From NCBI GenBank assembly GCA_963745835.1, contig CAVUZH010000014.1:416001-480000 (forward strand): a stretch of 64,000 nt of DNA, in the 5' to 3' direction. This stretch comes from an uncultured delta proteobacterium (GTDB taxonomy: Bacteria > Desulfobacterota > Binatia > UBA9968). Made by a program: the position numbers and the translations under genes. Positions 40,983 to 64,000 of the stretch are shown here, one piece after another. The notes below the pieces were generated by a model. The model did not search any database. It saw only the letters and a program-made list of their open reading frames with translations, and was not told the origin of the DNA. Position 1 is the stretch's first letter, and each line of letters opens with the position of its first letter.

Positions 40983-41528
40983 ATGAAGTCACACAAAAGG
41001 CTCGTGCTTCGTTTCGCGTTTGGCATCGCTTTTCTTTTCGCGATTTCCCCGGCATCGGCTCTCAACGTTGGCGATAAGGCACCGGATTTCGAGCTTGAGA
41101 GTAGCAAAGGCGGCAAGCTTAAATTGAGTGATCTCAAAGGTAAAAACGTACTAATCAACTTTTATGTTCTCGATTTCAGTCCGACCTGAATCAAAGACTT
41201 GCAAGCGTCCGGTTCGGACAATTATTCGATGTTTCAGGCCGAGAATACTGAAGTGGTCGGAATTAGCGGCAACGCTCCTTTCTCACAAAAGGCTTTTGCC
41301 GACTTCGCAAAAATCACATACCCGCTGTTGAGCGACAGAGAGGGTAAAGTCATGCAAGCATTCGGGGTGTATGATGAACCGAGGAGGGTAGCCAAACGCT
41401 CTTATGTCATTGTCGATAAGGAGGGAGTAATCCGGTATCTCAATATCCGTCCTAGCAACAGCGAGAAGGATCTTCTCTCGACCGAAGAATTGCTCACCGC
41501 AGTCAAGAAGGTCAATAAAGGTACCTAG
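40983..41528 (+). CDS. Exported peroxiredoxin-like selenoprotein (TGA at 41187-41189 read as Sec)
   Basis: ORFs 40983-41189 and 41199-41528 are in frame; FYVLDFSPT-TGA-IKDLQ at the peroxidatic position; signal peptide; conserved Arg in KRSYVIVDKEG; hairpin GTCC-GGTTC-GGAC. Confidence 0.88.
41207..41219 (+). promoter_or_regulatory. Candidate bacterial SECIS
   Basis: GTCC GGTTC GGAC; GGTTC starts 21 nt after TGA. Confidence 0.7.
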
Positions 41529-41679
41529 TATAATCTTTGCGCCGATGTAGCGCAGAAAGATTTTAGTTTGCTGTCAGCCCCGTGCATCCGCTGGAGCTGA
41601 CAGCCTGAGAACGACTGCTTGACGCACCCTAACGAAGCCTTGGAAAACCAGGTGCCTCAGCTCTAAGGCTACAGAACGC

Positions 41680-41870
41680 TTGACCAAGGGCACAAGTGCT
41701 CACGGTAATGCGGGCGAAGCATCCATATTTCTTGTTCTCGCCGATCGCAAGCTGAAGCCCGGGGGCATGTTGGCGTTGGTCATGCCTCTTAGTCTCATGT
41801 CTGGTGACTCTTGGGAGGACTCATGTGCGTTACTGGCTAAGAACTACACCGACGTTGTGCTGGTCTGTTG
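41680..41870 (+). pseudogene. Fragment of N6-adenine DNA methyltransferase (type IIG-like RM)
   Basis: IFLVLADRKLKPGGMLALVMPLSLMSGDSW, motif typical downstream of NPPY. Confidence 0.5.
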
Positions 41871-42095
41871 TAGCATGCTTGGTCATTTGTTCCTTGCTCT
41901 AGCTCCACAGTCCGGAGTTCATAATCCAGCCATCAGTGCGCAAAAACAGCCTTGCAATGCACGAACTTAGATGACCGCATTTGATCTGAAGTCAACGCGC
42001 TCCGACAGGAAATAGGGAAATTGCCAGACGATGACGCGATCGCCCGACTGGTGAAATCTTTTTTCTTCTTTGCTTTTGCCTGCGAACGGAAGAAA

Positions 42096-42350
42096 ATGCC
42101 GGACATGACAACAATATCCATCGATACTGAAACCTATAAGCGGCTGCTTAAGCACCTCCCCAGCGACGTCAAGCTGCGAATTGACGGACGGGCAACGACA
42201 CCTTCCGGAAACGCCACAACGATCAATTGCGACGCGAAGGATCAGGAGAACATCATCGCAATCGCGAGGCGACACTTTCCGGACAAAGCATGGGAAATTG
42301 AGAGAGAGGTTCGAATTGCTAGGGCTGAGCCACAGGAGAAACCGAAATAG
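42096..42350 (+). CDS. Small protein, divergent 'C...A..H.P' family member
   Basis: TINCDAKDQENIIAIARRHFPDKAWEIE. Confidence 0.6.
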   Translation: MPDMTTISIDTETYKRLLKHLPSDVKLRIDGRATTPSGNATTINCDAKDQENIIAIARRHFPDKAWEIEREVRIARAEPQEKPK

Positions 42351-42523
42351 GCGGATTGTCGGAATTTTGTCGGACCTGTCATAACAGAACCGCCGCGGAC
42401 TCATCGACAGGCCGGTTTGAGGGAACGAGATAGCACACAGGGGATTCTTACAATCCGTCAGGGATGCCGAATCTACAGCGTGCACGGTTCGTAGAATCGA
42501 CGCAGGATCACTCATTGGTAGGA

Positions 42524-42936
42524 TCATGGATCAGGCTCAGTTGTGGCTTTACCGTTGGTATGCGCTGGTTCATGCTCATCGTCTTCATCTCTCACTGCTG
42601 GTAAGAGTGTTTTCTTTTGCTTGTTGATCAGCGAAGGCTGCGTGAGTAACCGGGCGTCAATCGAATCGAGGATCAGCTTGGACTTAACGCAGAGATCGAT
42701 GAGTGCGGATTGTTGAGTTGAAATACTATCGGCGCCGCCGAGATCGTCAATTAGATCAGCGCGCCACTTGGCCAGCGTTTTTCCAAGAGAGGTTCGTTGT
42801 CTATTACCCGTCCACCTAGCCCCTTAACGGCCTCTCTGAGCGGCCTAAGTCCGTGTGTGACGGCATATCCGTTGCCTTTTGCTGCCGGCTGGCGGCGGAT
42901 TTCCGTTCCAACGGCGCTTTTTACTTCTAATCGCAT
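42524..42936 (-). pseudogene. Terminase small subunit-like protein, copy B (frameshifted)
   Basis: KGNGYAVTHGL...LGGRVID...WRADLIDDLGG...STQQSALI...QPSLIN. Confidence 0.55.
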
Positions 42937-43170
42937 CCAACAACCGCATCCACACCACAAAACTGCTTTAAATCAATAGCTTTCGTCTCAGAGCGAGACT
43001 CCCAGGAAATATGTCACTAGCGTCTGAGAAATAGTGAAGCGTCGAAATCTGATCTCTCCGTTGGATAGATGCTCTTGTCGTGGAGTGTTCTTATCATTAC
43101 ATAACCTGCCGGCCGTAGAAGCGATAACGGCGGTCTGCCTATCTCTTGAAGTTGCGATTTTTAAGAGCGG

Positions 43171-43192
43171 ATGGACACATTTTGGACACATT
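43171..43192 (+). repeat. Tandem TGGACACATT repeat, putative integrase arm-binding site (right)
   Basis: ATGGACACATTTTGGACACATT. Confidence 0.7.
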
Positions 43193-43238
43193 GGATAATC
43201 TGCAAGGTGAGCTCTTTAGACATAAGCACTTGTTTTCA

Positions 43239-43315
43239 TGGCGCGCCCGGAGGGATTTGAACCCCCAACCCTCAGATCCGAAGTCTGATGCTCTGTCCAG
43301 TTGAGCTACGGGCGC
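43239..43315 (-). tRNA. tRNA-Arg (anticodon UCG)
   Basis: GCGCCCGTAGCTCAACTGGACAGAGCATCAGACTTCGGATCTGAGGGTTGGGGGTTCAAATCCCTCCGGGCGCGCCA; cloverleaf with CCA. Confidence 0.97.
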
Positions 43316-43331
43316 CCTTAACCGTCAGGGA

Positions 43332-45122
43332 CTAATCAAAGTAAACTAAATCCAAACCTTTTTCAAAAAAGAAGCGATGCAACGATGGTGGGATCTGACG
43401 GTCGGTGAGAAATATGGAACGGTTGCGCAACCAAAATCCTGCCGTGCTTATGTTAACTCGATCTTTGTTGCCGTTATCGGCTGAAAACTTATGTTCGCGG
43501 TAAACGGTCTGATCGCGCAATTCCCCGAGGACTCGGGTGATTATCTCCTTCGCTGACATGGACGATAAATCAAGTTCAACCACCTTCATTCCTTGTCGTT
43601 GTTGCAAGGCTTTCTTGATTTCAGGTTGTACTTGGTGAAAGAAGAGCCCGATTCGCTGCCCTTTGGATTCGAATATGCGATCAGTCTGAGTTTCAAATCG
43701 AAGCCCCTCTCCCATTTCGACTGACTGCGGCTCGGCCACGCCGAAGGGTATTCCATAAGCTAGCAGCAAAGCGTCAATTTTCTCGGACTTTTCTCTGGGC
43801 CAAATCTTAACCTCTCCAGTTAATCTCGTGGTCTCATTCGTCGTTGTTTGCGGTTGAGAAGAAGAGGCCAAGACGACCTCCTTCAGATGAACCCCTTTTG
43901 CCGACAATTGCTCCTGCAGGTATTCGGGAATTTCATCTGCTTGATCAGTGACCGTGATGATGAAGATCTCCTGAGCTTTGCCGCTCTCTTCCGGAGCAGC
44001 GGCAATCCATGTTCCCATCGCTTCGAACGCAACATCGCCCTGCTGAATGCTGATCGGCCGATCACTTGGCAACGCCTGATACCCTAGGCGCGATAATAAT
44101 TGACTCACCGTCTCCTGAAGGTCGGCGCCCGTGGCGAGAGAGAACACCGATGTACCGGCATCGGGAGACTCAAAACTCTTGCGCAATGATGTTGGCAATC
44201 GCTCGCGTGTATCGAGAATTACTCTTTGTTGCAGCTTACGGTTTAACACAATCGGGTAAGAAGCTTTATCCAACCGAACCGTGCCGTTGGGTAAGGGAAA
44301 CACCTCGTCCCCATCACTCTCGACTTCGATCCCAACCGTATTCAGCACTTGTGCCAATAACGGCAGGTTTTCTTGCGCAAGAAGTCGCCTCGCATGATCC
44401 AAAGGCAGCGGCGCGCGCACAGGAGTTGGATTCTGAGGTGGTGCGATGGGCTCATACGATTGCGCCAACTTTTCCGTTCCCGGCGCCAACGATGATGCGT
44501 TCTGCGCCACCACGGCTCCGGTTTTATCCGCAGGAAGTTGGATAACCTCTCCTTCCTGCAAAACATCCCATTCCTTACGCTGTGGGTTCAGGTCTTTAAC
44601 CAGCGCGTAGTACGTCGCCAATTCCTTCTCGTCGGTAATTTTTAATTGCTCGCGCAGTATTTGATAGAGATGATTGCCCCGTTTCACCCGATAATCAGTT
44701 GTCAAGCCATTGCCGAGGGACTCGTTCAATTCCTTCCCACCGGCGGCAACAGTTGACGGCACAACAAGAACTTCGTCGGGCCGCATGGGGATAAAGAGAG
44801 TATCGCCGACCTTAAGCACGCTCGCGCTTTTCATTTGAGGATTGAGGGCTTGAACGACAATGACATACTGGCTGAATTTTCGTTGGGTTAATCCTCGTTC
44901 TTGAATCAGGATTCGCCACAGCGAATCGCCGGGACCGATCCGGCGATTTTCCCCTTGGACCATGGCTCCTTTGTACTCGCGCGTCTCGGCGGACTTGCGC
45001 AGGGTCAGTTGCGATTCAGCTCTGTCGAATTGTTCTTGCCCGAAAACATCGGCAACAAGCATTGCGGTGGAAAACGCGATCGAAACGAGGCCGAGGGCTT
45101 TGTCGGACAACGGATACTTCAT
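43332..45122 (-). CDS. Secreted LysM-domain protein
   Basis: Signal peptide; two LysM-like repeats (IGPGDSLWRI...LNPQ...LKVGDTLFIP; YRVKRGNHLY...LNPQ...LQEGEVIQLP). Confidence 0.85.
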   Translation of the reverse strand: MKYPLSDKALGLVSIAFSTAMLVADVFGQEQFDRAESQLTLRKSAETREYKGAMVQGENRRIGPGDSLWRILIQERGLTQRKFSQYVIVVQALNPQMKSASVLKVGDTLFIPMRPDEVLVVPSTVAAGGKELNESLGNGLTTDYRVKRGNHLYQILREQLKITDEKELATYYALVKDLNPQRKEWDVLQEGEVIQLPADKTGAVVAQNASSLAPGTEKLAQSYEPIAPPQNPTPVRAPLPLDHARRLLAQENLPLLAQVLNTVGIEVESDGDEVFPLPNGTVRLDKASYPIVLNRKLQQRVILDTRERLPTSLRKSFESPDAGTSVFSLATGADLQETVSQLLSRLGYQALPSDRPISIQQGDVAFEAMGTWIAAAPEESGKAQEIFIITVTDQADEIPEYLQEQLSAKGVHLKEVVLASSSQPQTTTNETTRLTGEVKIWPREKSEKIDALLLAYGIPFGVAEPQSVEMGEGLRFETQTDRIFESKGQRIGLFFHQVQPEIKKALQQRQGMKVVELDLSSMSAKEIITRVLGELRDQTVYREHKFSADNGNKDRVNISTAGFWLRNRSIFLTDRQIPPSLHRFFFEKGLDLVYFD

Positions 45123-46531
45123 CTAACCTTCCACGTAGTGCCGCCTCGAGTGTCTTCCACAACGATTCCTTTGGCGAGTAGTTCATTGCGAATACGATCC
45201 GCCTCACGCCAGTTCTTGTTCATTCGGGCCTGATCCCTGGCGGCAATTGCCTTCTGCACCTCCGCTTCCGCAAAGCCTTGTTGCCGCAGCCACCGTGCCT
45301 TCTTTCTGCTGAGAAATGCCTCTGGACCATCTTGCAACAGTCCAAGAGCATCGCACATGGTTTCCAACGCCGAAGCGCGTTCAGCGACGCCATCGTTCTG
45401 CTTAGAATCGAGCAAGCGATTGAGAGATCGAACCTCGTCAAAGATCAAAGCTAATGCTCGCGGCGTGTTAAAATCATCATCCATTTCCTGGCGAAAGCTA
45501 GACATCAATGAAGGGTCCGCAACCCTGTTCTGCCGGCTGGTTCCGGAACACGCAATCCGCTCAATCGTTTCATAGATTCTCTCGGCGGACCGTTCCGCTT
45601 CCTGAAGAACTTCCTTGGAGAAATCACCTGGACTCCGATAATGGCTAGTCAAGAACAACTGACGCACGGCAACCGGATCGTGCTCCTGTAAAATCTCCTC
45701 TATCGTAAAGTAGTTGCCTAACGACTTCGACATTTTCTCGCCGTTCACGGTCAGGAGCCCATTATGCATCCAGTAACGCGCCAGCGGCAAGCCGAATGCG
45801 CCCTCAGACTGGGCAATTTCATTTTCGTGATGCGGAAACATCAAGTCTCTGCCGCCGCCGTGGATGTCGAAGGGCTGGCCGAGATATTTGCTGCTCATCA
45901 CCGAACACTCGATATGCCAGCCCGGACGGCCCGGACCCCAGGGGCTTTCCCAACTAGGCTCGCCGGCCTTACTCGATTTCCAAAGAGCGAAATCCAGCGG
46001 CGATTTCTTGCGCTCATCGATTTCGACGCGAGCCCCCGCCTCCAACTCCTCGATCCTTTTGCGCGAAAGCCTGCCATAGCCAGGAAAACCCGGAACTGAA
46101 AAGAATACATCGCCGTCAATGCGGTAGGCCAGCTGACGCTCCTCGAGTTTTTGTATGAGCTCGATGATCTCTGCAATATGCAAGGTCGCCCGCGGCTCTA
46201 GGCTCGGCGGCAGCAATCCTAACGACTCGGCGTCCCGGTGAAATTCGTCAATATAGCGGTCGGTAACGGCTTTACAGCTAATTTTCTGGTCGTTGGCTTT
46301 ATTGATAATTTTATCGTCGACGTCGGTGAAATTGCGCACGAACTGCACGCGATAACCGCAAAATTTCAGATAGCGATAGATGGTATCGAAGGTCAGCAGT
46401 GAGCGCGCATGGCCGATGTGCGAGGAATCGTAAACCGTCACGCCGCACACGTACATCCGCACTTCTCCCGGGGTCAGTGGCACAAAATCTTCTTTTTCCC
46501 CGCTGAGTGTATTGAAAATTTTTAGCGACAT
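45119..46531 (-). CDS. cysS: Cysteine--tRNA ligase
   Basis: YVCGVTVYD, HIGH, PGWHIECS, HGGG.DL.FPHHENE, KMSKS. Confidence 0.98.
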   Translation of the reverse strand: MSLKIFNTLSGEKEDFVPLTPGEVRMYVCGVTVYDSSHIGHARSLLTFDTIYRYLKFCGYRVQFVRNFTDVDDKIINKANDQKISCKAVTDRYIDEFHRDAESLGLLPPSLEPRATLHIAEIIELIQKLEERQLAYRIDGDVFFSVPGFPGYGRLSRKRIEELEAGARVEIDERKKSPLDFALWKSSKAGEPSWESPWGPGRPGWHIECSVMSSKYLGQPFDIHGGGRDLMFPHHENEIAQSEGAFGLPLARYWMHNGLLTVNGEKMSKSLGNYFTIEEILQEHDPVAVRQLFLTSHYRSPGDFSKEVLQEAERSAERIYETIERIACSGTSRQNRVADPSLMSSFRQEMDDDFNTPRALALIFDEVRSLNRLLDSKQNDGVAERASALETMCDALGLLQDGPEAFLSRKKARWLRQQGFAEAEVQKAIAARDQARMNKNWREADRIRNELLAKGIVVEDTRGGTTWKVR

Positions 46532-46630
46532 ATGAAGGAATTCTCAATGTTACGGATCAGATCCGGATTTGCAAGCAATTTCGCGCAGCCCGCTTGCTAA
46601 TGCGAGGAAAAGAGCATAGACAAAAAATCT

Positions 46631-48286
46631 ATGAATTTTGCTAAACCTTATGAGGACTTAAGAGAGTTTATCGCCGCACTCGACGCTCACGACAAACTGT
46701 ACCGAATTCATCGAGAGATAAATAAAGACAGCGAATTGCAACCGTTGGTACGCTGGCAGTTTCGCGGCCTACCCGAAGAAGCGCGCCGCGGCTTTCTCTT
46801 CGACAATGTCACGGATGGAAAAGGACGCAAATACCATTGCCGCGTGTTAGTCGGCGGTCTCGCCGGCTCGGAAGCGATCTACTGTCTGGGGCTGAAGTGC
46901 CAGCCCGATGAGGTTGCCGATCGCTGGCTATACGCCATGGATCATCCCATTGATCCGATCATTGTCGGCTCCGGATCTTGCCAGGAGGAGGTCCACACAG
47001 GAGACGATCTTCTGTCCCAGGGCGGTCTGCTGGAGTTTGCGATCCCGATGTCCACACCGGGATTCGACAATGGTCCTTATATCACCGCCGGCCACTGGAT
47101 CACCAAAGATCCCGAGACCGGCAGGAGGAACGTCGGCAATTATCGCGGCTTGATCAAAGGACCTGCGCTGAGTGGACTTATGTCGGGAACGCCGCAGGAC
47201 TTGTCCTCGCATTGGGAAAAATGCCGCAAGGTCGGAAAGCCTTTGGAGGTTGCTATCGTTGTCGGCACAGTTCCGGCCGTATCTTATTGCGCGACCCAAA
47301 AGGTACCGCCGGACGTCGATGAAATTGCATTGGCGGGAGGCCTCACAGGCGCCCCGGTGAAGCTAGTGAAATGCAAGACCGTGGATCTGGAGGTGCCTGC
47401 CACCGCCGAAATTGTTTTGGAAGGCATCATTCCGACCAACTATATGGAGGAAGAAGGTCCTTACGGCGAGTCGATGGGTTATGTCGACCCTAGAACGTTG
47501 AGCACGATGTTCGAGTTGAAGTGCGTTACGCATCGCAAGGATCCCATCTGGGTGTCGATCATCAGCCAGGTCACTCCAAGCGAAAGTTCCAAGATTAAAG
47601 CGATGGGAATGTCGACTTTGGTCAAACGGTTCATCGTCAGCAAAGGCTTCGACTGCGTCCGCGAGGTTCACATGATCGAGCCCTTGGTGAACCTGCGGCC
47701 GTACGTTGCGGTCAGTTTGAAAAAACGGAACGACGAAGATCCTTGGGGAGTCATGCAGGCTGTCCTGGACTATGGCGACCGTGTTGGAAAGATGATCGTT
47801 GCGGTCGATGAGGACATAAACGTCAAAGATCCTATCGCGGTCAATTGGGCCATCACACATCGCTCGCAACCTCATAAGGATATCAAAATTGTCGGCGACC
47901 GGCCGTTCGGCGCCACGCCTATCGGCATGGTAGCAACGCATTCCTCGAGCCGTTATGACAATTGCGAGTCCTCGTTGCTGATCGACGCCACCCGCAAGGC
48001 TGACTTCCCGCCCCTATCGCTGCCGAAGAAAGAATTCATGGTCCGGGCGAAGGAGATTTGGGAAGAGCTGGGCCTGCCGAAACTTGAACCGCAGGAACCA
48101 TGGCATGGCTACTTGATGGGTCTATGGCCGGAAGATCTAGAAGAAGAAGCCGAGCTGGCAGCACAGAGCGAACATGAAAAAGTATGGGAGAAGCTGCGCC
48201 AAACTCGAGTTCAGGTAGGGGAAGGTGAGACATTAAAATCGATGCGCGCCAAATGGGGTAAATCCCACACCGGACGCTCGGAATAG
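46631..48286 (+). CDS. UbiD-family (prFMN-dependent) decarboxylase
   Basis: DLREFI, RNVGNYR, VPATAEIVLEG, EEEGPYGESMGY, VDEDINV, IDATRK. Confidence 0.93.
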   Translation: MNFAKPYEDLREFIAALDAHDKLYRIHREINKDSELQPLVRWQFRGLPEEARRGFLFDNVTDGKGRKYHCRVLVGGLAGSEAIYCLGLKCQPDEVADRWLYAMDHPIDPIIVGSGSCQEEVHTGDDLLSQGGLLEFAIPMSTPGFDNGPYITAGHWITKDPETGRRNVGNYRGLIKGPALSGLMSGTPQDLSSHWEKCRKVGKPLEVAIVVGTVPAVSYCATQKVPPDVDEIALAGGLTGAPVKLVKCKTVDLEVPATAEIVLEGIIPTNYMEEEGPYGESMGYVDPRTLSTMFELKCVTHRKDPIWVSIISQVTPSESSKIKAMGMSTLVKRFIVSKGFDCVREVHMIEPLVNLRPYVAVSLKKRNDEDPWGVMQAVLDYGDRVGKMIVAVDEDINVKDPIAVNWAITHRSQPHKDIKIVGDRPFGATPIGMVATHSSSRYDNCESSLLIDATRKADFPPLSLPKKEFMVRAKEIWEELGLPKLEPQEPWHGYLMGLWPEDLEEEAELAAQSEHEKVWEKLRQTRVQVGEGETLKSMRAKWGKSHTGRSE

Positions 48287-48288
48287 CC

Positions 48289-48858
48289 ATGAAGAAGAAC
48301 GTCACTTTTACCGTCAACGGTGAGGAACACGAGGTTGAAATAGAGTCAAACCGGCTCCTGCTTCAAGTCCTCAGGGATACGCTGGGTTTGACTGGAACGA
48401 AGGAAGGCTGCTCCATCGGAGTCTGCGGCGCATGCAGTGTCATTGTCGACGGCCGGGTCGTGAGCTCGTGTCTGACATTGGCGGCCGGCTGCGCCGGAAA
48501 AGAGATCCAAACCATCGAAGGTCTCGCCAAGAATGGCAAGCTCCATCCGTTGCAGCAGGCTTTCATCGAATACGGCGGCTTTCAATGCGGCATCTGCACT
48601 CCCGGACAGATCATGGCTGCGAAGTCTCTATTGGATGAAAACCCCACGCCAACAGAAGACGAAGTCAAAGAATGGATGTCGGGCAATCTCTGCCGCTGCA
48701 CCGGCTACTATAAAATTCTCGAAGCCGTGATGGCGGTAGTTAATAACAAGATCGATCCCGATTTCGCATTTCGAAAACGCGAGCAGACCGCCAAAATTCA
48801 AAGCCTGGACGTTTACAAAGCGGTCGCAAAGACACCTCACTCACACAAAGGTGAGTGA
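48289..48858 (+). CDS. Mo-hydroxylase 2Fe-2S subunit (CoxS-like)
   Basis: GTKEGCSIGVCGACSV, QCGICTPG, GNLCRCTGY. Confidence 0.95.
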   Translation: MKKNVTFTVNGEEHEVEIESNRLLLQVLRDTLGLTGTKEGCSIGVCGACSVIVDGRVVSSCLTLAAGCAGKEIQTIEGLAKNGKLHPLQQAFIEYGGFQCGICTPGQIMAAKSLLDENPTPTEDEVKEWMSGNLCRCTGYYKILEAVMAVVNNKIDPDFAFRKREQTAKIQSLDVYKAVAKTPHSHKGE

Positions 48859-48970
48859 GCGCCCTGAGCGCTGCCAAGAAAGTCAATCCAAGTGAAAGGA
48901 TCGACCTGAGCGAACCGGTCACAAGGATCGCATATAGACCTCCTACGAAATTATAAAGAGATCGTAACCT

Positions 48971-55912: not shown

Positions 55913-55916
55913 ATAG

Positions 55917-55945
55917 CGCGGCGGCCAGGATCTGACCGCCGCGCA
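55917..55945. terminator. GC hairpin between convergent genes
   Basis: GCGCGGCGG-N-CCGCCGCGC; lacks a U-tract. Confidence 0.55.
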
Positions 55946-55958
55946 CCAGCTAAATCAA

Positions 55959-56405
55959 TCATTCGGGATATTTGTCGGCCCGGAATTCCTTGTGGCAAGA
56001 GGAGCAGACTTCGCCGACAGCCTTGAATTTGGCTGCCACCGCTGCATCATCCTTTGACTTTGCCGCGGAGGCGAGCTCACCGCTCGCTTTGCTCAAGTTC
56101 TTGGCTTGTTTGGCAAATTCATCGGATTTTTCCCAGATCGCGGCCGTCGCCTTGGTCTTCCCTTTATCACTACCTTTAGGAAACAGGCTGGGAATCTTAT
56201 CCGCAGTGCCCATGATGTCTTTGGCCTTGGTTTCTACCGTTGCATAGTCTTTGCTCTCAACTGCCCCCTTGATCGCTTTGACATCTGCGCTGTTGCCCTT
56301 CATTGCTTTCTGTCTCTTCTCAATAACTTCTTCTTGAGCCAAAACCTGTGAGGAGACTGATGCTGTAAGTAAAATGAAAAGTCCAGTGATGATAATTTTT
56401 TGCAT
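55959..56405 (-). CDS. Class II cytochrome c (c'/c556)
   Basis: Signal peptide, KRQKAMK, IWEKSDEF, C-terminal CSSCHKEFR. Confidence 0.93.
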   Translation of the reverse strand: MQKIIITGLFILLTASVSSQVLAQEEVIEKRQKAMKGNSADVKAIKGAVESKDYATVETKAKDIMGTADKIPSLFPKGSDKGKTKATAAIWEKSDEFAKQAKNLSKASGELASAAKSKDDAAVAAKFKAVGEVCSSCHKEFRADKYPE

Positions 56406-56877
56406 GATCCCGTACCCTCCTTATGGTTAACGCCCGTTGATCCGGTAGCTCCGAAGATAAATTGTCATAGGCTATACCTAAGTGACCGATGCAAGAAAAA
56501 AACCGGTTAGGATTCTAGCCGGCCTATTCTGGCCGAGTCGAATTATATAGTCGTACAGATTACCTCGCCGCGGTATGAGCAAAGAAAGTACCAGCACGTT
56601 CGTATGTGAAAAGCCAACAGCCACGGGAGCCTTTCAACTGGCCCGAAGTTTCATTGTCCCGAAACCGAATCAGCCGTTCTAGAAAACAATACAGCCATAC
56701 ACGCATATTGATCCGGATGAATCGCCAAATACCTTAGCCGCGATAACATACTACATTCCGAGTAGCACGTGGCGATTGCACCAAGCTTTGACATACGCTT
56801 ATTTGGACGACACAATCGGTCGCAAATTCAAGGATGTCCAACGGATCGAAAATATAGCAGATGGGACAAGTTAATCG

Positions 56878-56904
56878 CGAGGCCCCCACTTGTGGGGGCC
56901 TCGA
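56878..56904. terminator. Hairpin downstream of transglutaminase gene
   Basis: CGAGGCCCCCAC-TT-GTGGGGGCCTCG near-perfect inverted repeat. Confidence 0.65.
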
Positions 56905-56932
56905 ATAAGAACGACAACGAAACGGGTACTAA

Positions 56933-58030
56933 TCAAATCTCTTTAGCCGTGATGGTGTATTTGAAATTATCCGGATCGAGGCTATCGCGCCGACCGTTGG
57001 CTTCCTCAACCTGGGGGTACATCAGAAAGCCAAGTTCAGGTCCGTTAGAGTTGGGTAATTTAACGTCATGAGCATAGTTATACGCTAACCAGTTCATTTC
57101 CCATGCGCCAAACAGTTTGGCTCGCGCCTTCTTGACCTTGGGATCATCGAGCGGCAGCGGCTGGCCGGGCAGGTTCTCTTCCAGAACCACCTTGCGCACG
57201 TCGGCTGGATCGACCGGTACCCAGCCCTGCCCAGTCAAAAAGACTTCAGCCCGGCAATGCTGGGCGCGGGTAATATCGTCGGCCTTGCCGAGACTTTTGA
57301 ATTCTGATGAGTTAGCGCAGCGGATTCCGTAGACATCCCGTGCCGGCAGGCCGGCGGCGCGGGCCAATCCCACGTATAGCGCGTTTAGGTCGGCGCACTT
57401 GCCGCCGAGATAACCGGTTTGAAGCATCGTCGAAATGTCGCCGATACCACAACCTTTCACCTTGGGATCGCGAAAAGTATTATCGACGATCCACTCATAG
57501 ATCGCTCGCGCTTTGTCGACGTCGCTCTTCATACCCATGGTAATGCCACGTGAAGTCGTACCGACGATACCATCGGTTCGTATAAGCTTTGACGGCTTAC
57601 GGAAATAGTCCAGCACGGCCTTATCTTCTTTGACCGCAACATTTGGTTTCTCGCTCAAATTCACTTGCCGGTCGCGGGTCTTAAAACGGCTCTTCAGTTC
57701 TAATGAAGGCGCGGTTTCCCCGGCCGTCCATTCGGCGAATAACATCCCTGTTCCATATCGATCGTACTGGACGATTCGAGCAGACTTGAAGTTACCAGTC
57801 CAGCTATCATCTTCACGTTTGAAATAGTCCGTCTGCTTGGTAAGTGGGACTGGAAGCCACACGCGAGTAGCTCCCACGGGTTTGATGACATCGACTTTGG
57901 TAATCACCTCGAAGCTTCGCCACTTCGTCGGATCGTCAGCACTCGCAAAATGATTCAACCTGGGCGTAGCCCCCAGCGCCAGCCCAGCAGAAACGGTCAG
58001 GCTCGATTTTAAAAATGATCTCCGGTTCAT
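56933..58030 (-). CDS. Tat-exported transglutaminase-like protein
   Basis: MNRRSFLK Tat motif; catalytic triad GGKCADLN, QHCRAE, WVPVDPAD. Confidence 0.93.
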   Translation of the reverse strand: MNRRSFLKSSLTVSAGLALGATPRLNHFASADDPTKWRSFEVITKVDVIKPVGATRVWLPVPLTKQTDYFKREDDSWTGNFKSARIVQYDRYGTGMLFAEWTAGETAPSLELKSRFKTRDRQVNLSEKPNVAVKEDKAVLDYFRKPSKLIRTDGIVGTTSRGITMGMKSDVDKARAIYEWIVDNTFRDPKVKGCGIGDISTMLQTGYLGGKCADLNALYVGLARAAGLPARDVYGIRCANSSEFKSLGKADDITRAQHCRAEVFLTGQGWVPVDPADVRKVVLEENLPGQPLPLDDPKVKKARAKLFGAWEMNWLAYNYAHDVKLPNSNGPELGFLMYPQVEEANGRRDSLDPDNFKYTITAKEI

Positions 58031-58145
58031 GGACTCCCCCAATTGGTTTTATCGAATGGATTCGATTGGTAATCCCTACAACGGTTTTTTTGGAAAAACA
58101 ACCGGATAATGACCGGATTGTTCTGAGACTTTGGTACTGTTTCGA

Positions 58146-58625
58146 TCAATCTTTGCCCGATTGTTCCCGTAGAAAAGTCAGCACCTCTTGCGGGTGCTGA
58201 TCAGCTTTTTTGACGGTCGGCCAGTGTTTGATCACGTTGCCCCTTGAGCCGATTACCAATGTTGAGCGGATCGTGCCCTCCACGGTTTTTCCGTACATCA
58301 TCTTCTTGCCGAATGCCTGGTATTTTTTCATGACCTCGGCCTTGGGATCGGCCAAAAGCACGAACGGCAAATCGAACTTCTCAGCAAACTTCTTATGAGA
58401 AGCAATGCTGTCTTTGCTGATACCCAGAACTATCGCTCCCAGTCTTTTCATTTGCGTATTTAGCTCGCGGAACCCGCAAGCTTCCTTGGTTCAGCCCGGA
58501 GTACTGTCCTTGGGATAGAAGAATAAGACCATTTTTTGGCCGCGATAATCCTCAAGCGAATGTGTCTTGCCGTCGTGGCCTTCCAGACTGAACGCCGGCG
58601 CTTTCTGCCCCTCCAAACTCTTCAT
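58146..58625 (-). CDS. bcp: BCP/PrxQ selenoprotein (U45, UxxxxC)
   Basis: ATG 58625 with GGAG RBS; [12 protein letters not shown](58493-58491)-TKEACGFR in frame with ORF 58146-58451; aligns to Cys paralog at 60311. Confidence 0.9.
58462..58482 (-). promoter_or_regulatory. Candidate bacterial SECIS
   Basis: AGCTTGCG-GGTTC-CGCGAGCT; GGTTC starts 16 nt after TGA. Confidence 0.75.
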
Positions 58626-58933
58626 GCCCAGCCTTTCTCCTCAACCGAGAATGTAGCATTCATTGTTCGAATCGGTACGCTCTTAAGAAATCAACCCAGC
58701 GAAACGGTTTGCGGCGACAAATCGGATTAGGCGCCTCGAAAAGCCGTTCGCGCTCCTGCCATGGGATTCCTGCTACACTTCGTAGGTTTCGCGAGCTTTT
58801 TCCCAGGTACTGCGCCCAAAACCTTCGCAGAAGGGTTCGTTACTCTCCGCCATACAGGTGGCGAGATCCACTAAGTACATCTCGCGGTTCTCCGATACCG
58901 CTTTCAAGAGACGACTCTTGGTAAATTATTGCT

Positions 58934-60298
58934 TTAAGTCGAAACGCAGCGAAATTTGGCGAACACATACGGATAGTGACCTTGATACCAATTGCGAAAC
59001 GTCGGTCGCAGCAGTTCCGCCGGAGTCGCCCAGGAAGCGCCCTTGAAGACGAAGTGCTTTCCATCGAAAAAATCCTTGGAGTAGTCGGGATAGCGAGGAA
59101 TATAAGGCGTGAAGCCTGGAAACGGCGCGAATGGCGTATCGGTTAACTCCCAGCCATTACCGACCAATTCTCCGATACCCCATCGGCTCACGCCGGCTGG
59201 ATGCGAGCCTACGGGATTCGGCGACCACGAGCTAAAATCGAAATTGCCATGACGATGCGCTGGAGCTAATTCGCCCCACGGATAACGCGTCGAGATTTCG
59301 TCAGGTCCGCCGTAGCAGGCGCGTTGAAACTCCGCCTCAGTCGGCAATCGCTTGCCGCGCCAGCTAGCGTAGGCACGCGCCTCAGCAACGGTCACATAGA
59401 CCGGCCAACTGGAAACCTGGGCGAGCGGAAAGAGATCGAACATCGCTTTGTAGAGCCAGAGGCTGCCCCGTTGAAGCCAAACGCTGGGATGCTTCCTGGC
59501 GGTTTGCACTTTCCAGCGCCAATCTTCCGGTCGCCAGTAACGCTCTACATCGTAAGCGCCGGACTGCACGAATTCAAAATATTCGCCATTGGTGACCGGC
59601 ATCGAATCCATCGTAAATGCCGGTACATCGACAACCGTTTGTGAAAACTCGTTGTCCCAGCCGAAGTCTAACTCGGAAAACTTTGCGCCAAGTGAAACTT
59701 TGCCGCTCTGGTATTTCCGTTGGAACGAGAACGCGCAGCCGCCTGGAAGGAATACCGTGGTGATTTGGTTGGGCGGTTTTTTTTATCAAGCGGCAGCTCA
59801 TGCATCATATACAACAGAGTTTCTTGATGCATGTATTCATGCTCGAGAACCATTTCGAAGGCGCGCCCGTTTTGTGCCATGATATCTGAGGATTCCAAAC
59901 GCGACATCATTATCGAGCGCTTCCAAGACCGCCGAGCGAACCTGGTCGCGGTATTTCAGTACTGTATGCAGATCGGGCCAGGTCTCCGGAACCTCGGGAT
60001 GCCAATGACACTCGCCAGTGTCAACGTCCGGATCGATGCCGCGACAAAACAAATCGTCGAAATAAGGATTGAAGGACTTCCACTGCAGCAGTGCGCCACA
60101 GGTTTGATTCCAGGTGAACGCAGGAAGATGTCCGACATAAAAAATAAAAGGGTGGCGCCAGACAATCGGCTTGGTTAACATCTGATCTTCGTTGATCAGA
60201 CGAAACAGCTCATCGGTCTTAGACCAAGCCGAGTGAAACCGTGCTTCGAACCTCGCCCTCTCGACGTTGACCCGCGGTACGAATGCCCGGTTCATCAC
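58934..60298 (-). CDS. EgtB/Egt1-type non-heme-iron sulfoxide synthase (DinB + FGE-like domains); frameshifts near 59910 and 59710
   Basis: RHPFIFYVGH, RGIDPDVD..CHWHPEVPETWP, EHEYMHQETLLYM, FGWDNE, PVTNGEY, RLPTEAE, LVGNGWE, YSKDFFDGKH, RNWYQ. Confidence 0.85.
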
Positions 60299-60310
60299 GA
60301 TACCCCGCCG

Positions 60311-60778
60311 TCACTTCTGGAGAAACTGCAACACTTCACGAGGATGCTCCTCCGCATTAGCAACCGGCGCCCATTGGCGTAACACCTTACCGTCAGGACC
60401 GATCACCACCGTCGAGCGAATAGCGCCTTCGACGGTTTTGCCCTCCATATTTTTCCTCTCACCCCAAGCGCCGTAAGCCTGCATAACTTTGGTTTCGGGA
60501 TCGGAAAGAAGAGTAAACGGCAAGTTATATTTAGCGATAAATTGATTGTGCGATTCGATTCCGTCTTTGCTTACGCCCAAAACGATGGCGTTGGAATTCG
60601 TCACCGAATCGATAGAATCGCGAAAGCCGCAAGCTTCCTTGGTGCAGCCCGGCGTGTCATCTTTCGGATAAAAATAAAGGATAACGCTTTTACCTCGGTA
60701 GTCGGACAAAGAATGTCGCTTGCCATCGCTGCCGTCTAAATTAAATGCCGGCGCCTGCTGTCCTTCTAAATTACTCAT
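60311..60778 (-). CDS. bcp: BCP/PrxQ peroxiredoxin, Cys form (CxxxxC)
   Basis: [19 protein letters not shown]; AGGAGG RBS. Confidence 0.95.
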   Translation of the reverse strand: MSNLEGQQAPAFNLDGSDGKRHSLSDYRGKSVILYFYPKDDTPGCTKEACGFRDSIDSVTNSNAIVLGVSKDGIESHNQFIAKYNLPFTLLSDPETKVMQAYGAWGERKNMEGKTVEGAIRSTVVIGPDGKVLRQWAPVANAEEHPREVLQFLQK

Positions 60779-60959
60779 GAAGCCTCCTTCTCGGGATTTA
60801 AGCTATTTCTTTTGTCTATCATGTGTAAAGGCTCGGTCAATACAACCCGCGATAAAACTTGTGGGTTCGCATTGTCGCCCAAATAGTCGTGCCGGGAGAG
60901 TGGGCTGGAGATGTCCAGGGCGGGATCGTGGCGCGGTTATTACCCGTGGTAACCAGGAG

Positions 60960-61871
60960 CTATTTGTTTTTCAGAAACTCGCGGAATGCCTGAGCAACTG
61001 GTGATAGCGGCCGGCCCTTATAACAAACCTCGTAGAAGTCGCGGATCATCTTCAACTCGCGAATTGGAATTTCCGTAAGAAGGCCTTCAGCCAATTCACG
61101 TGCGACTGAAACGCGGGACAAAATCGAAATACCGAATCCCGAGATCAGAGCCTCTTTAACCGCCGCGGTACTTCCAAGCTCCATTGCTACACTGAGCAGG
61201 TCGTCGGCAGAACGTCGGCCCTTACTGATAAGGTGACGAAAAGAATCCAAGGTTCCCGAGCCGCGTTCCCGCGAGATGAAGTGTTCCGAACGCAAATCTG
61301 CCAGGTGAACGAATTTTCGGCGGGCCCACGGATGTGCACTCGGCACAGTGAGTACCATTTCATCCTGCCAGATCTTGTCGAAAGATAGTCTGTTCTCCGC
61401 GTTCTTGAAGCCGACGAATCCGATTTCGACTTTGCCGTCGAGCACCTCGTCCACTATGCTCGCCGAGTCGCCGATTCGCAGAATCGGCTTTACCCGAGGA
61501 TGCTTTTGGATGAATGCGGCAAGGCTATGCGGCAGTAAATATTCACCGGGAATGTTGCTGCCGCCGATCCAAAGCTCGCCGCTCAGGCTACCGTGAAAAC
61601 GCTCGATCTTAGCCACCGTTTCTCTTTTGAAAGCCAGCAGATCCTTGGCCTGTTCGAGCAGCAGTATGCCTAATGCGGTCAGAGTAACCTTCCCGGGAAT
61701 CCGATAGAACAACTTGCCGCCAAGGGTTTTTTCCAGTTCCTGGATATGCGCGCTGACTGTGGGTTGCTTCAAAGATAGCCGTTGTGCCGCTTCCGAAAAG
61801 CTTTTAAGCTCTGCTACCCAGAAGAAGACTTCGAGCTTGTGTAGATCCAAATCGCCTTTTAGTTTGCTCAT
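60960..61871 (-). CDS. LysR-family regulator, CysL-like, possibly selenium-metabolism-associated
   Basis: HTH SFSEAAQRLSLKQPTVSAHI; GGSNIPGEYLLP, RERGSGT, ELGSTAAVKEA. Confidence 0.9.
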   Translation of the reverse strand: MSKLKGDLDLHKLEVFFWVAELKSFSEAAQRLSLKQPTVSAHIQELEKTLGGKLFYRIPGKVTLTALGILLLEQAKDLLAFKRETVAKIERFHGSLSGELWIGGSNIPGEYLLPHSLAAFIQKHPRVKPILRIGDSASIVDEVLDGKVEIGFVGFKNAENRLSFDKIWQDEMVLTVPSAHPWARRKFVHLADLRSEHFISRERGSGTLDSFRHLISKGRRSADDLLSVAMELGSTAAVKEALISGFGISILSRVSVARELAEGLLTEIPIRELKMIRDFYEVCYKGRPLSPVAQAFREFLKNK

Positions 61872-61958
61872 GGTAAGTTGATCGCTGTGATTTTCGCTAT
61901 TAAATGCGCCGGGACCGAACGTTGTCAACTGCGCAACTTGGCGTTATATTTTTGATCA

Positions 61959-63062
61959 ATGTCAAAGCAATCGCCGTTAGTCAGCGTTCATCAGGCCAAT
62001 GGAGCAATACTGGCCGAGTATGACGGCTGGTCGCTGCCCCGACATTTCGGCGACCCGCATGAGGAGCACTTATCGGTGCGCCGTGCGGCCGGCCTTTTGG
62101 ACTTCTCAAACCGCGCCGTCTTGGAGTTCACCGGCGTTGATCGTCTATCTTATCTGCAGGGCTTGATCTCAAATGATTTGCGGGTGCCTTCCGCAGGGGA
62201 AGGAATTTATGCCGCGTTCCTGAGCCAGCAGGGAAAAGTTCTCGGCGACTGCCGCGTCTTGACTACGGACGATAGTTTCATTGTCGACTTGTGGGAACCG
62301 CTTAAGCAAAAAATTCTCGATCACCTACACCGTTATTTGGTTGCCGACGAGGTGGAGATCGCGGATTTAAGCGACCGCTGCGCCATCTTGTCCATTCAGG
62401 GACCCAAGTCGGAAACACTGCTAGAAAAATTTCTCGCCAGGGAACAACAGCCGCAGACAAGTCTAGCTCACTCGATTGCTGAATTTGCCGGGGTCGAAAT
62501 GCGCATCTGCCGCTCTGGCCATACGGGTGAAGATGGGTTCGATCTGATGATTCCTCTCGCCCACATTGAAAACATGGCTCAGCAGTTGACCGAAGCCGCC
62601 TCGACGTACTCTGCCCGATGGGTTGGCACTGAGGCTTACGAGATCCTGCGAATCGAAGCAGGTATTCCGCGTTATGGCATCGACATTACCGATGACAATC
62701 TCATACTGGAAACCGGTCTGACTCACGCTGTGAGCTTCGACAAGGGTTGCTATCTGGGTCAGGAAGTCGTCGAAAGGATTCGCTCCCGCGGCCACGTCAA
62801 CAAAAATCTTACCGGGCTATTGATCCACGGCGAAAAGCCCCCGCCGGCAGGCAGCAAGATATTGTCAACCGAAAAGGAAATCGGCACGATCACGAGCTCA
62901 GTCTACTCCCCGAGTCTCGAGTCCCCGATCGCGTTGGGCTATGTTCATCGCGACCATCGTTCTCGAGGTACACAGCTACTGGTACGCTACGATGCGGAAC
63001 TTCTTGTCAACGCCACGGTTACGGAGTTACCGTTCACCGCTACCGACCCGGCGAGACACTAA
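61959..63062 (+). CDS. ygfZ: YgfZ/GcvT-family folate-binding protein
   Basis: FDKGCYLGQEVVER signature; LRIEAGIP. Confidence 0.9.
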   Translation: MSKQSPLVSVHQANGAILAEYDGWSLPRHFGDPHEEHLSVRRAAGLLDFSNRAVLEFTGVDRLSYLQGLISNDLRVPSAGEGIYAAFLSQQGKVLGDCRVLTTDDSFIVDLWEPLKQKILDHLHRYLVADEVEIADLSDRCAILSIQGPKSETLLEKFLAREQQPQTSLAHSIAEFAGVEMRICRSGHTGEDGFDLMIPLAHIENMAQQLTEAASTYSARWVGTEAYEILRIEAGIPRYGIDITDDNLILETGLTHAVSFDKGCYLGQEVVERIRSRGHVNKNLTGLLIHGEKPPPAGSKILSTEKEIGTITSSVYSPSLESPIALGYVHRDHRSRGTQLLVRYDAELLVNATVTELPFTATDPARH

Positions 63063-63191
63063 CGTGATCTTGCCAATCGGATGCGCCGGGATTCGAACCG
63101 GCCTGTCCGGAGTATTCGGCACTTGAATCCGAACGCCGAGTCCGTATATTGAACGGAAAATTTTGCTCCACCCGAGAAAGGCTGAAGAGAA

Positions 63192-63497
63192 ATGGCTAAT
63201 TTTGTCAAAGTCTGCAGGGCCGAGGATATCAAAGCCGGTTGTGCCAGGAGCCTTGAAGTTAACGGTAAGTCAATTGGCGTCTACAATGTCGACGGCAAGT
63301 TTTATGCGATCAATGACATTTGCGGTCATCGCGGCGGACCGTTAGCCGAAGGCGAACTGGATGGCACCACGGTGATCTGTCCTTGGCATGGCTGGCGCTA
63401 CAATGTCACCACCGGTGAAAACGAATTGCTACCGGCATTGCCGATTGAAAAATATGAAGTAAAAGTTGAAGGCGATGACGTGCTGGTGGACGTTTAA
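63192..63497 (+). CDS. Rieske-type ferredoxin
   Basis: CGHRGGPL...CPWHGWRY. Confidence 0.95.
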   Translation: MANFVKVCRAEDIKAGCARSLEVNGKSIGVYNVDGKFYAINDICGHRGGPLAEGELDGTTVICPWHGWRYNVTTGENELLPALPIEKYEVKVEGDDVLVDV

Positions 63498-63517
63498 GAA
63501 AACCACGCGAATCAAAC

Positions 63518-63553
63518 AAGGCCCGCTGCCATCGTTGATGGAGCGGGCCTTTT
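63518..63553. terminator. Intrinsic terminator between convergent genes
   Basis: AAGGCCCGCT.CCATC-GTT-GATGG.AGCGGGCCTTTT. Confidence 0.75.
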
Positions 63554-63567
63554 GTTAAATATCCTTC

Positions 63568-64000
63568 CTAGCTTTGATTGATTTTGTCGAGCTCATTAAA
63601 CAGATCGGAATTTTCCGGAACGCCCTTGTCGTACTCTTTGGCGAATCGAATCGTCCCCTGTTTGTCGATAATGAAGACCGCGCGCTTCGGCATCCCCTGC
63701 GGTCGCAAACAGTCATATTGAGCGCACACTGCGCCATGAGGCCAGAAGTCCGACAGCATCGGGAAGTTGATGCCACCCATTCTTTCGGCAAATACTTTGT
63801 GAGAGAAAACGGAATCGACACTTACGCTCAGAACCTGAGCGTCGCGGGCTTCGAATTCCTTGCGGTCTTTTTCGAAGCTGCTTAGCTCACGCTCTCACCC
63901 GCCGGTGAAATCCAGAGGATAGAAGGCCAACACTACGTTCTTGCTGCCCTGGTAATCCTTGAGTGATACATTATGTTCGCGTGAAATGGGCAGGGTGAAT
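63568..64000 (-). CDS. AhpE/AhpC-like peroxiredoxin selenoprotein, 5' end beyond window
   Basis: KNVVLAFYPLDFTGG-TGA(63897-63895)-ERELSSFE...VLSVSVDSVFSHKVFAE in frame with MGGINFPMLSDFWPHG...KRAVFIIDKQG. Confidence 0.88.

Follow-up and report, generated by a model that had tools for sequence, protein, structure and literature searches.

Hairpins downstream from in-frame UGA codons in three peroxiredoxin genes of a Binatia-type genome, and a putative tandem arrangement in one of them

Three peroxiredoxin genes with in-frame TGA codons

We analyzed three peroxiredoxin (Prx) genes in a 64,000-nucleotide stretch of DNA from an uncultured bacterium of the Binatia type, each of which carries a TGA codon at the position of the catalytic cysteine (Cys) and, downstream of it, a hairpin tipped with the pentamer GGTTC (GGUUC in the RNA). 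The stretch, referred to here as the window, corresponds to positions 416,001 to 480,000 of contig CAVUZH010000014.1 in assembly GCA_963745835.1 (G000:C14:416001-480000 in our numbering), a metagenome-assembled genome (MAG) of 7.28 Mb in 25 contigs that is estimated to be 97.1% complete and 9.33% contaminated. As a preliminary description of the window had stated, standard open reading frame (ORF) calling splits all three genes and returns only fragments; uninterrupted ORFs were obtained by translating TGA as selenocysteine (Sec, U). The genes, their active-site TGAs and the hairpins, which we discuss below as candidate selenocysteine insertion sequence (SECIS) elements, were all found where that description had placed them (Table 1). 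The hairpins indeed encode different peptides, namely S-G-S-D in gene 1 (codons TCC GGT TCG GAC), C-G-F-R in gene 2 (TGC GGG TTC CGC) and A-Q-V-L-S in gene 3 (with the pentamer within CAG GTT CTG), and the pentamer sits in a different reading frame in each of them.

Table 1. Positions of the three Prx genes, their predicted Sec codons and candidate SECIS hairpins, and the Cys paralog of gene 2 (window coordinates).
Feature	Position	Strand	Remarks
Gene 1, secreted-type AhpC/TSA peroxiredoxin, predicted Sec at residue 69 (LDFSPT-U)	40983..41528	+	TGA=U translation; Pfam AhpC-TSA E 9.2e-34
Gene 1, predicted Sec-UGA codon	41187..41189	+	
Gene 1, candidate SECIS hairpin GTCC-GGTTC-GGAC, G-C-closed GUU triloop	41207..41219	+	21-22 nt past UGA
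Gene 2, Bcp/PrxQ-like peroxiredoxin, predicted Sec at residue 45 (DSTPG-U)	58146..58625	-	Pfam AhpC-TSA E 3e-38
Gene 2, predicted Sec-UGA codon	58491..58493	-	
Gene 2, candidate SECIS hairpin AGCTTGCG-GGTTC-CGCGAGCT	58462..58482	-	16-17 nt past UGA
Cys-containing Bcp paralog of gene 2	60311..60778	-	59% identical; no TGA; Pfam AhpC-TSA E 1.6e-39
Gene 3, peroxiredoxin, predicted Sec in YPLDFTGG-U	63568..64000	-	5' end ~36 nt outside window; Pfam AhpC-TSA E 1e-33
Gene 3, predicted Sec-UGA codon	63895..63897	-	
Gene 3, spacer hairpin GCTTCGAA...TTCGAAGC, 8 bp, internal CC-GCAA-GG tip	63848..63878	-	begins 17 nt past UGA
Gene 3, distal hairpin ACGCTCA-GGTTC-TGAGCGT, candidate SelB-binding element	63824..63842	-	59-60 nt past UGA

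All three products match the Pfam AhpC-TSA domain and have U in place of the peroxidatic Cys. Each has Cys opposite U in four to six in-genome paralogs (four in the case of gene 1). Against NF040737, the NCBIfam equivalog of PrxU, they score 70.4, 45.2 and 70.7 bits, respectively, below the cut-off of 270, and are therefore assigned to other Prx subfamilies. The best NCBIfam match of gene 2 is PrxQ, with 172.7 bits, which does not reach the cut-off of 260.

Selenocysteine machinery and selenoprotein genes of the host genome

The host genome holds the full Sec-decoding trait (selA, selB, selC and selD). A selA-selB-selD cluster lies on contig C22, with scores of 608.6, 394.3 and 383.4 bits that all exceed the respective cut-offs, and selD itself carries one in-frame TGA. 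Inspection of the SelB C-terminal domain and of selC, which the preliminary description had proposed, revealed nothing unusual: SelB (643 amino acids) has the ordinary domain set of GTP_EFTU, domain 2, beta-barrel, SelB-wing_2 and SelB-wing_3, and the single tRNA-Sec is canonical, with acceptor and T stems of 8 and 5 bp, respectively, a long extra arm, the anticodon UCA and G73. Systems in which UGA is read as Cys by a tRNA-Sec-like tRNA-Cys, together with a SelB-like factor, exist, and Cys insertion by a tRNA-Sec-like tRNA had been offered as an alternative for the present genes. However, the tRNA just described is the sole tRNA(UCA), neither a second tRNA(UCA) nor a second SelB-like factor was found in the genome (one SelB scores above the family cut-off, and the only other match above the Rfam tRNA-Sec cut-off is a tRNA-Leu(UAA)), and both selA and a Sec-containing selD are present. 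Insertion of Cys at these codons is thus extremely unlikely.

A coding-potential screen of the genome yielded 255 read-through candidates, from which 19 likely selenoprotein genes were retained through self-BLAST (Cys aligned to U), Pfam, NCBIfam and inspection of hairpins. Eight of these belong to the Prx family, while the remaining ones encode two GrdB, one GrdA, a PrdB-like protein, two rhodanese-domain proteins, a DsbA-like protein, a glutaredoxin, a MetE-like protein, FdhA and SelD. The hidden selenoproteome that the split genes had been taken to imply is thus borne out, and it is a large and antioxidant-heavy one for a Binatia-type MAG. A useful by-product of the present analysis is that genes broken up by ORF callers can now be read correctly, together with a selenoproteome of some 19 genes. 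Among the candidates that were dropped, c230 was an Rrf2 regulator with an ABC ATPase behind it in the same frame, c20 had its U aligned to R, G, C or Q in paralogs and c152 was an upstream extension of a rhodanese gene. Candidates c164 (a polysaccharide deacetylase with U at residue 22) and c218 (a multihaem cytochrome) stand outside the 19.

The GGUUC loop against its background

The pentamer GGTTC occurs 14,411 times in the genome when both strands are considered, and in 325 cases it caps a stem of 4 bp or more, with G-U pairs allowed. This rate of 0.0226, as compared to 0.0202 for all pentamers, places GGTTC at rank 131 of 1024, such that there is no general enrichment of GGTTC hairpins. 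In 88 of the 325, a TGA open on both sides precedes the hairpin by 8-74 nt, and only four of these 88 are coding-like on both flanks, namely genes 1-3 and a paralog of gene 1 on contig C3. Following the genuine stops of long coding ORFs, GGTTC hairpins were found after 2 of 1823 TGA, 1 of 1437 TAA and 1 of 1272 TAG codons, numbers which match the background expectation of 0.0015 hairpins per stop. The preliminary description had held that an equal frequency after genuine TGA stops would speak against it; the hairpin is not equally frequent there, and the association between TGA and hairpin is therefore real.

In that description, the shared tip was taken as a possible lineage-specific SECIS consensus, to be read by the SelB of this lineage. 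Several counts agree with such a reading, as GGTTC hairpins were seen after 4 of the 19 Sec-UGAs, compared with only 2 of the 1823 true TGA stops, as the GGUUC loop is retained in orthologs of genes 1 and 2 (see below), and as GUU is the commonest triloop among the SECIS candidates of the genome. Yet the exact motif is found in only those 4 of the 19 selenogenes and is absent from the known selenogenes fdhA and selD, an outcome that the description itself had named as refuting. The fdhA hairpin of this genome is GGTCGCC-GGTCT-GGCGGCC, with the loop GGUCU, selD carries A-GUU-U, and other genes present GGC, GGU, GUC, GGA or CGGGU. In orthologs of gene 3, the fourth base of the loop varies freely and the closing pair alternates between G-C and A-U. 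Moreover, in related Prx from other phyla (according to the database records, Chloroflexota, Acidobacteriota, Bacillota, Planctomycetota and others), the loop seen most often after the Sec codon is again GGTTC, with 13 of 37.

The pentamer also fits the general published pattern. The consensus bacterial SECIS of the bSECISearch model, as given in PMC13188914 and PMC10778597, has a loop of 3-9 nt and an upper stem of 4-16 bp; according to PMC13188914, there is a G at either the first or the second loop position, the loop usually reads N1-G[G|U]-N-N2 with N1 and N2 paired, the spacing from the UGA is 16-37 nt and the minimum free energy (MFE) is -7.5 kcal/mol or lower. RNAfold draws GGUUC as a GUU triloop closed by a G-C pair, and in genes 1-3 the pentamer corresponds to N1=G, GU, N=U and N2=C. 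A hairpin with a G[GU] loop was seen at all 19 selenogenes, at a spacing of 16-33 nt in 17 and of 59-60 nt in two. The Rfam SECIS families gave no match in positions 40500-64000 at E values up to 10, nor at the gathering score in the whole window. The differing loops within the genome, the occurrence of GGTTC in other phyla, the fit to the published pattern and the ordinary domain set of SelB make a consensus specific to the lineage highly unlikely. The shared GGUUC is an ordinary bacterial SECIS signal, with a tip that represents the standard loop for SelB recognition, and not a special word. The hairpins are nonetheless under selection, as considered next.

Conservation of the hairpins of genes 1 and 2

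Sequences from three unpublished genomes (G012, G018 and G047) were counted in the raw match tallies and listings, while their loci L019, L042, L071, L076 and L092 were excluded from the gene 3 alignment described below, from its pairing statistics and from the ortholog loop counts, and no claim depends on these genomes alone. For gene 1, TGA is present in 30 of 30 distinct orthologs used (70-99% protein identity), GTCCGGTTCGGAC is unchanged in 23 of them and the GGTTC loop is found in 27. The positions of this hairpin are mostly synonymous, and it is near-invariant at synonymous sites in the 30 orthologs. The stem of 4-5 bp and the loop of 5 or 3 nt, depending on the closing pair, lie within the sizes of the published SECIS model, while the hairpin alone has -3.7 to -4.9 kcal/mol and the 64-nt fold -8.4 kcal/mol, and it should be noted that the energy window used in the model may differ.

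The gene 2 hairpin is longer, with 8 bp that include one G-U pair (8-9 bp by folding) and -11.4 to -13.5 kcal/mol, in a region with an MFE of -15.8 kcal/mol (z -1.81). As gene 2 orthologs mix Sec and Cys forms, the family can be regarded, on the basis of sequence comparison, as a natural experiment. Orthologs with TGA write the Gly-Phe pair as GGG-TTC in 10 of 11 cases and as GGG-TTT in one, whereas orthologs with Cys use GGG-TTC in 1 of 17, the majority having GGC-TTT. The view of the preliminary description that these are SECIS-type hairpins after a Sec-UGA is supported, and the evidence for it, the link of the hairpins to TGA rather than to Cys codons, is indirect.

Two hairpins in the gene 3 family

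One in-frame TGA was seen in all of the 72 matches listed that cover the Sec position of gene 3 (68-99% identity, three families of the order), and a paralog family of about 44% identity, with the motif DWTPT-U and one copy on contig C15, also carries TGA. What sets this family apart is the spacing. Among the 19 selenogenes, only gene 3 (59-60 nt) and its C15 paralog (59 nt) have their G/U-loop hairpin outside the 16-37 nt of the model, and in gene 3 the intervening segment forms a hairpin of its own. In the following, we refer to the latter as the spacer or proximal hairpin and to the GGUUC-tipped one, which has 7-8 bp and -8.9 to -10.8 kcal/mol, as the distal hairpin.

Both hairpins were examined in an ungapped alignment from the UGA to position +80 of 70 distinct sequences, comprising 50 gene 3 orthologs and 20 members of the paralog family. 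The distal helix (columns 56-63/67-74) is 98.2% paired and shows compensatory changes in four of its eight pairs, with double changes CG/UA 9, GC/AU 17, UA/CG 19 and GC/AU 8, the last being the pair that closes the loop. The proximal helix (columns 20-27/43-50) is 83.9% paired, with three compensatory pairs. When the helix partners are shifted by 1-3 columns, pairing is reduced to 17-41%. The RNAalifold consensus for this alignment is the distal hairpin. These data also bear on the possibility that the TGAs of genes 1-3 are true stops or signs of decay in split or broken genes, with hairpins that arose by chance. Apart from the splitting of the three genes by standard ORF calling, which such a view would explain, the evidence runs in the other direction: the TGA is conserved at the catalytic position over three families of the order, the sequence on either side of it scores as coding, and synonymous-site constraint and compensatory changes are found downstream. 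We thus consider the probability of stops or decay to be practically negligible.

A scan of one genome per species provided a wider set of 80 loci of the gene 3 Prx clade, which were binned by protein identity to gene 3 into 10 close Sec forms (60% or more), 37 distant Sec forms (below 60%) and 33 Cys forms. According to the database records, the distant Sec forms come from classes of Chloroflexota, Acidobacteriota, Bacillota, Ignavibacteriales, Planctomycetota, Tectomicrobia, Elarobacter, Vulcanimicrobiaceae and others, and the Cys forms mainly from Actinomycetota, as well as from Chloroflexota, Acidobacteriota and Eisenbacteria. All 80 loci are free of insertions and deletions over the stretch from the catalytic codon to the hairpin. 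In the distant Sec forms, all eight distal pairs can form in 23 sequences, seven in 12, six in one and five in one, whereas the Cys forms have 2-6 pairs (mostly 4-6) in 32 sequences and seven in one. The difference corresponds to a Mann-Whitney p of 1e-12, a value that overstates the case because the sequences are related and not independent. RNAalifold returned the distal hairpin for the Sec set and zero pairs for the Cys set.

The loop itself presents a different picture. As the codons GAT-GCC-CAG-GTN-CTG-GGC-ATC, which form a perfect 8-bp palindrome around GUN, can encode D-A-Q-V-L-G-I, this strand has the potential to form the hairpin within its coding sequence. The loop reads GU in 107 of 107 distinct Sec forms of the gene 3 family (50 orthologs, 20 paralog-family members and 37 distant forms), a count that is confounded by the conserved Val codon. 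The feature that tracks TGA in the sequences compared is the complementarity of the codons that flank the loop and not the loop word. An AhpC-type Cys homolog with the catalytic codon TGT (L180, G005:C109) provides a further observation in this respect, since its D-A-E-I-L-G-V region forms a perfect 8-bp hairpin, GACGCCGA...TCGGCGTC, with the loop AATT and no G-U. As this hairpin lacks a Sec codon, the codons of this strand drift into palindromes regardless of Sec. L180 fits the recruitment of a SECIS from a pre-existing hairpin, and it should also caution one against calling every hairpin at this position functional.

For the spacer hairpin, support comes from per-sequence folding statistics, because the register of the helix differs between clades and RNAalifold gave the distal hairpin only. 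We thus used register-free folding z-scores in place of covariation. As compared to dinucleotide shuffles, the spacer (columns 14-55) has a mean z of -2.97, -2.54 and -3.04 in the three groups of Sec forms, with values below -1.5 in 80-97% of the sequences, whereas in the Cys forms, at equal G+C (0.58-0.60), the mean is +0.18 and none falls below -1.5. Five Cys forms that belong to the subfamily of the distant Sec forms have spacer z values of -0.95 to +1.13 and 5-6 distal pairs. In the Sec forms, the helix has 11-15 bp over a span of 33-42 nt; its median distance from the UGA is 8-15 nt, and it stops 2-4 nt before the distal stem. Its outer strand is represented by 20, 15 and 32 different 8-mers across the three groups, and the structure is therefore kept while the sequence changes. 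Both hairpins are thus present in the 107 distinct TGA forms, which come from this order as well as other phyla, and missing from the 33 Cys forms.

Which of the two hairpins serves as SECIS has to be considered with care. The distal hairpin was taken as the candidate SelB-binding element because it resembles, both in stem length and in its triloop, the SECIS hairpins that the remaining 17 selenogenes of the genome carry. The main rival to a tandem arrangement is that the proximal hairpin is the real SECIS and that the distal one has an accessory role (as a pause site, for instance) or results from the coding of a palindromic peptide. The tip of the proximal hairpin lies 24-30 nt past the UGA, within the 16-37 nt of the model, 64 of 107 Sec sequences have a G at the first or second position of its loop, and this hairpin is as specific to Sec forms as is the distal one, such that it could pass the loosest version of the published model. 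That the distal loop may be a by-product would agree with the finding that Cys forms retain GGTNC owing to their Q-V-L codons and with the 8-bp hairpin at the same place in L180. On the other hand, the proximal loop has no conserved base, and matches N?G[GU] in only 6 of 50, 3 of 20 and 3 of 37 sequences (12 of 107 in total). The complementarity of the distal stem follows TGA strictly, with 7-8 of 8 pairs in 35 of 37 Sec forms as compared to 1 of 33 Cys forms, and it is the distal hairpin that is similar to those of the other 17 selenogenes. Overall, we find it unlikely that the proximal hairpin is the SECIS of gene 3.

Proposed mechanism

The genes, their UGAs, the Sec machinery and the hairpins are present, and the hairpins are conserved and tightly linked to TGA over Cys. 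We consider it probable that the three hairpins are bacterial SECIS elements for Sec at the peroxidatic UGA, with gene 3 relying on its distal loop and on compaction by the spacer. In such a mechanism, SelB would deliver Sec-tRNA(Sec) to the UGA that replaces the peroxidatic Cys codon in the three Prx genes, and would contact the exposed G and U of the loop, by analogy with G23/U24 of E. coli fdhF. The pentamer would have arisen three times, in three frames, through the choice of codons inside conserved peptides. In genes 1 and 2, the loop lies at the canonical spacing, 21 and 16 nt past the UGA. In the gene 3 family, the loop hairpin derives from the strand D-A/T-Q-V-L-S/G-V/I and its palindromic coding potential. 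The sequence-variable spacer hairpin absorbs 33-42 nt, such that about 8-17 nt remain single-stranded ahead of it and 2-5 nt behind it. By shortening the path, the spacer hairpin would presumably bring the distal hairpin near the mRNA entrance of the ribosome when the UGA is in the A site, roughly where an ordinary SECIS would be located. Binding of the distal hairpin by SelB and compaction of the distance by the spacer hairpin are predictions of this mechanism.

Several points that weigh against this interpretation should be taken into consideration. The gene 1 hairpin is weak (5 bp, -4.9 kcal/mol), and its 64-nt fold is not more stable than that of shuffled sequences (z +1.28). In the gene 3 family, the Cys forms keep GGTNC as GGTGC or GGTCC, because Q-V-L is written CAG-GTN-CTN, so that only the complementarity of the stem separates Sec from Cys forms, and the invariant G-U of the loop corresponds to the first two bases of the conserved Val codon. 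The position and the loop of the proximal hairpin, as discussed above, are further points of this kind, as is the failure of RNAalifold to return the spacer helix, such that column-wise covariation of this helix across phyla is not shown. The 10 nt directly after the gene 3 UGA (63894-63885, GAGCGUGAGC) can pair with positions 63842-63831 in the 5' arm and the loop of the distal hairpin, and this alternative fold (MFE -30.6 kcal/mol, found in this genus only) would compete with the distal hairpin. The alternative fold resembles the lower stem in the fdhF SECIS of E. coli, which would be melted by the ribosome, and orthologs outside the genus lack it. Finally, the source is a MAG with the contamination estimate given above, the compared sequences share ancestry, so that p-values overstate the evidence, and Sec insertion and SelB binding are deduced from comparisons of sequences.

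Beyond the window, it may be that a widespread Prx clade uses a distinct class of bacterial SECIS that consists of two tandem hairpins, in which the GUN-triloop hairpin is fixed 53 nt after the UGA. This clade is found in Candidatus Binatia relatives and, according to the database records, also in Chloroflexota, Acidobacteriota, Bacillota, Planctomycetota, Eremiobacterota-type MAGs and others. We regard the chances for and against such a class as evenly balanced. Gene 3 offers a defined exception to the 16-37 nt spacing rule that selenoprotein finders use. If the tandem reading is true, the spacing rule of SelB would be one of three-dimensional reach and not of nucleotide count, a testable rule for siting a SECIS farther from the Sec codon would become available to selenoprotein engineering, and the family would show how a SECIS is recruited from a peptide with palindromic codons.

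Neighbouring genes and further selenoprotein genes

Gene 2 and its Cys-containing paralog (G000:C14:476314-476778, free of stops) lie 1.7 kb apart on the same strand, with the paralog between genes 2 and 3. A LysR-family regulator (60960-61928) is found just past the Cys-Bcp gene, and gene 3 follows after another 3 kb. An identical neighbourhood of Sec, Cys and Sec-Prx genes occurs in two genomes of the same genus (G004:C12 and G006:C9). Gene 2 and the Cys-Bcp gene may represent a selenium-dependent enzyme and its selenium-independent backup. The only match at the Rfam gathering score in the window is an ordinary and unrelated tRNA gene at 43242-43315 on the minus strand (69.8 bits).

Elsewhere in the genome, Sec genes are found on contigs C3, C13, C15, C18 and C19, and the set includes the eight Sec-Prx genes along with GrdA, two GrdB and the PrdB-like gene. 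The MetE-like gene lies outside the window on the same contig (G000:C14:585906-587042, minus strand) and encodes a Pfam Meth_synt_2 domain, the catalytic domain of cobalamin-independent synthase, with an in-frame TGA in F-H-V-U-R-G-N-Q-G. This U is opposite Cys in 4 of 4 in-genome paralog alignments listed (6 were found), a hairpin with a CGUUG loop lies 18 nt downstream of the TGA, and the TGA is retained in about 30 relatives of 60-99% identity, while paralogs of 45% identity or less lack it. The H-x-U of this protein would match the His-x-Cys zinc ligands of MetE. A second gene, G000:C15:23145-24257 (minus strand), encodes a membrane VTT-domain protein fused to a rhodanese domain with the active-site motif C-S-U, which matches the 'CxU' form of rhodanese given in a review, and has a CGGGU-loop hairpin 21 nt after the UGA. 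As for the families to which these genes belong, those listed in PMC13188914 and PMC1794560 include Prx, Prx-like, Grx, DsbA-like, rhodanese, GrdA/B, PrdB, FdhA and SelD, and the main text of PMC13188914 makes no mention of PF01717 or methionine synthase.

Comparison with known systems

The loop motif and the Sec-Prx family are already known, while the arrangement in gene 3, read as a SECIS variant, appears to be new. Sec-containing Prx (PF00578, with the motif T/SxxU) are described in PMC13188914, which cites PrxU of Eubacterium acidaminophilum. The present genes resemble them in their AhpC/TSA fold and in the use of Sec for the peroxidatic Cys, genes 2 and 3 having the motif PxxxTxxU and gene 1 the motif SxxU; unlike PrxU, they fall below the equivalog cut-off, and eight genes of the Sec-Prx family occur in one genome.

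As compared to the consensus bacterial SECIS, genes 1 and 2 agree in loop, stem and spacing (21 and 16 nt), although the minimal hairpin of gene 1 has -4.9 kcal/mol as compared to the limit of -7.5 kcal/mol (with the reservation on the energy window made above). Gene 3 and its paralog family differ, having the loop 59-60 nt away and a conserved hairpin in between. According to PMC13188914 and PMC12013277, a subset of genes has a SECIS that fails the model, and 'distinct classes' of bacterial SECIS may exist, although they are left undefined there; PMC12013277 states that, in 20 genomes, at least 40 known genes (13.0%) escaped bSECISearch. In the literature covered, which included passages of PMC12013277, PMC1794560, PMC1088965 and PMC13188914 but neither supplements nor the original description of bSECISearch, no bacterial SECIS with two hairpins or a long spacing was found. 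Fig. S1 of PMC12013277, which shows genes missed by bSECISearch, may already include the gene 3 Prx clade. If true, the tandem class would be a concrete case of these undefined classes and would explain why model-based finders miss some known selenogenes.

Other close systems are the SECIS elements of E. coli fdhF and of Moorella thermoacetica fdhA. In E. coli fdhF, the SelB-binding upper stem-loop lies 11 nt from the UGA and the loop carries G23 and U24 (PMC8659212). As in fdhF, the apical loop of the present hairpins exposes a G and a U, and the fdhA hairpin of this genome has the same type of loop. While the fdhF SECIS is one long hairpin with a bulged U17, the elements described here have short perfect stems and a triloop with no bulge, and gene 3, unlike fdhF, has two hairpins in tandem. 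In its distance from the UGA, the gene 3 element is reminiscent of the archaeal and eukaryotic SECIS elements of the 3' untranslated region, for which a fixed short spacing is not required. Those elements differ, however, in structure and in the factors involved, whereas the gene 3 element lies inside the ORF, at a fixed 59-60 nt, and carries a loop of the bacterial type.

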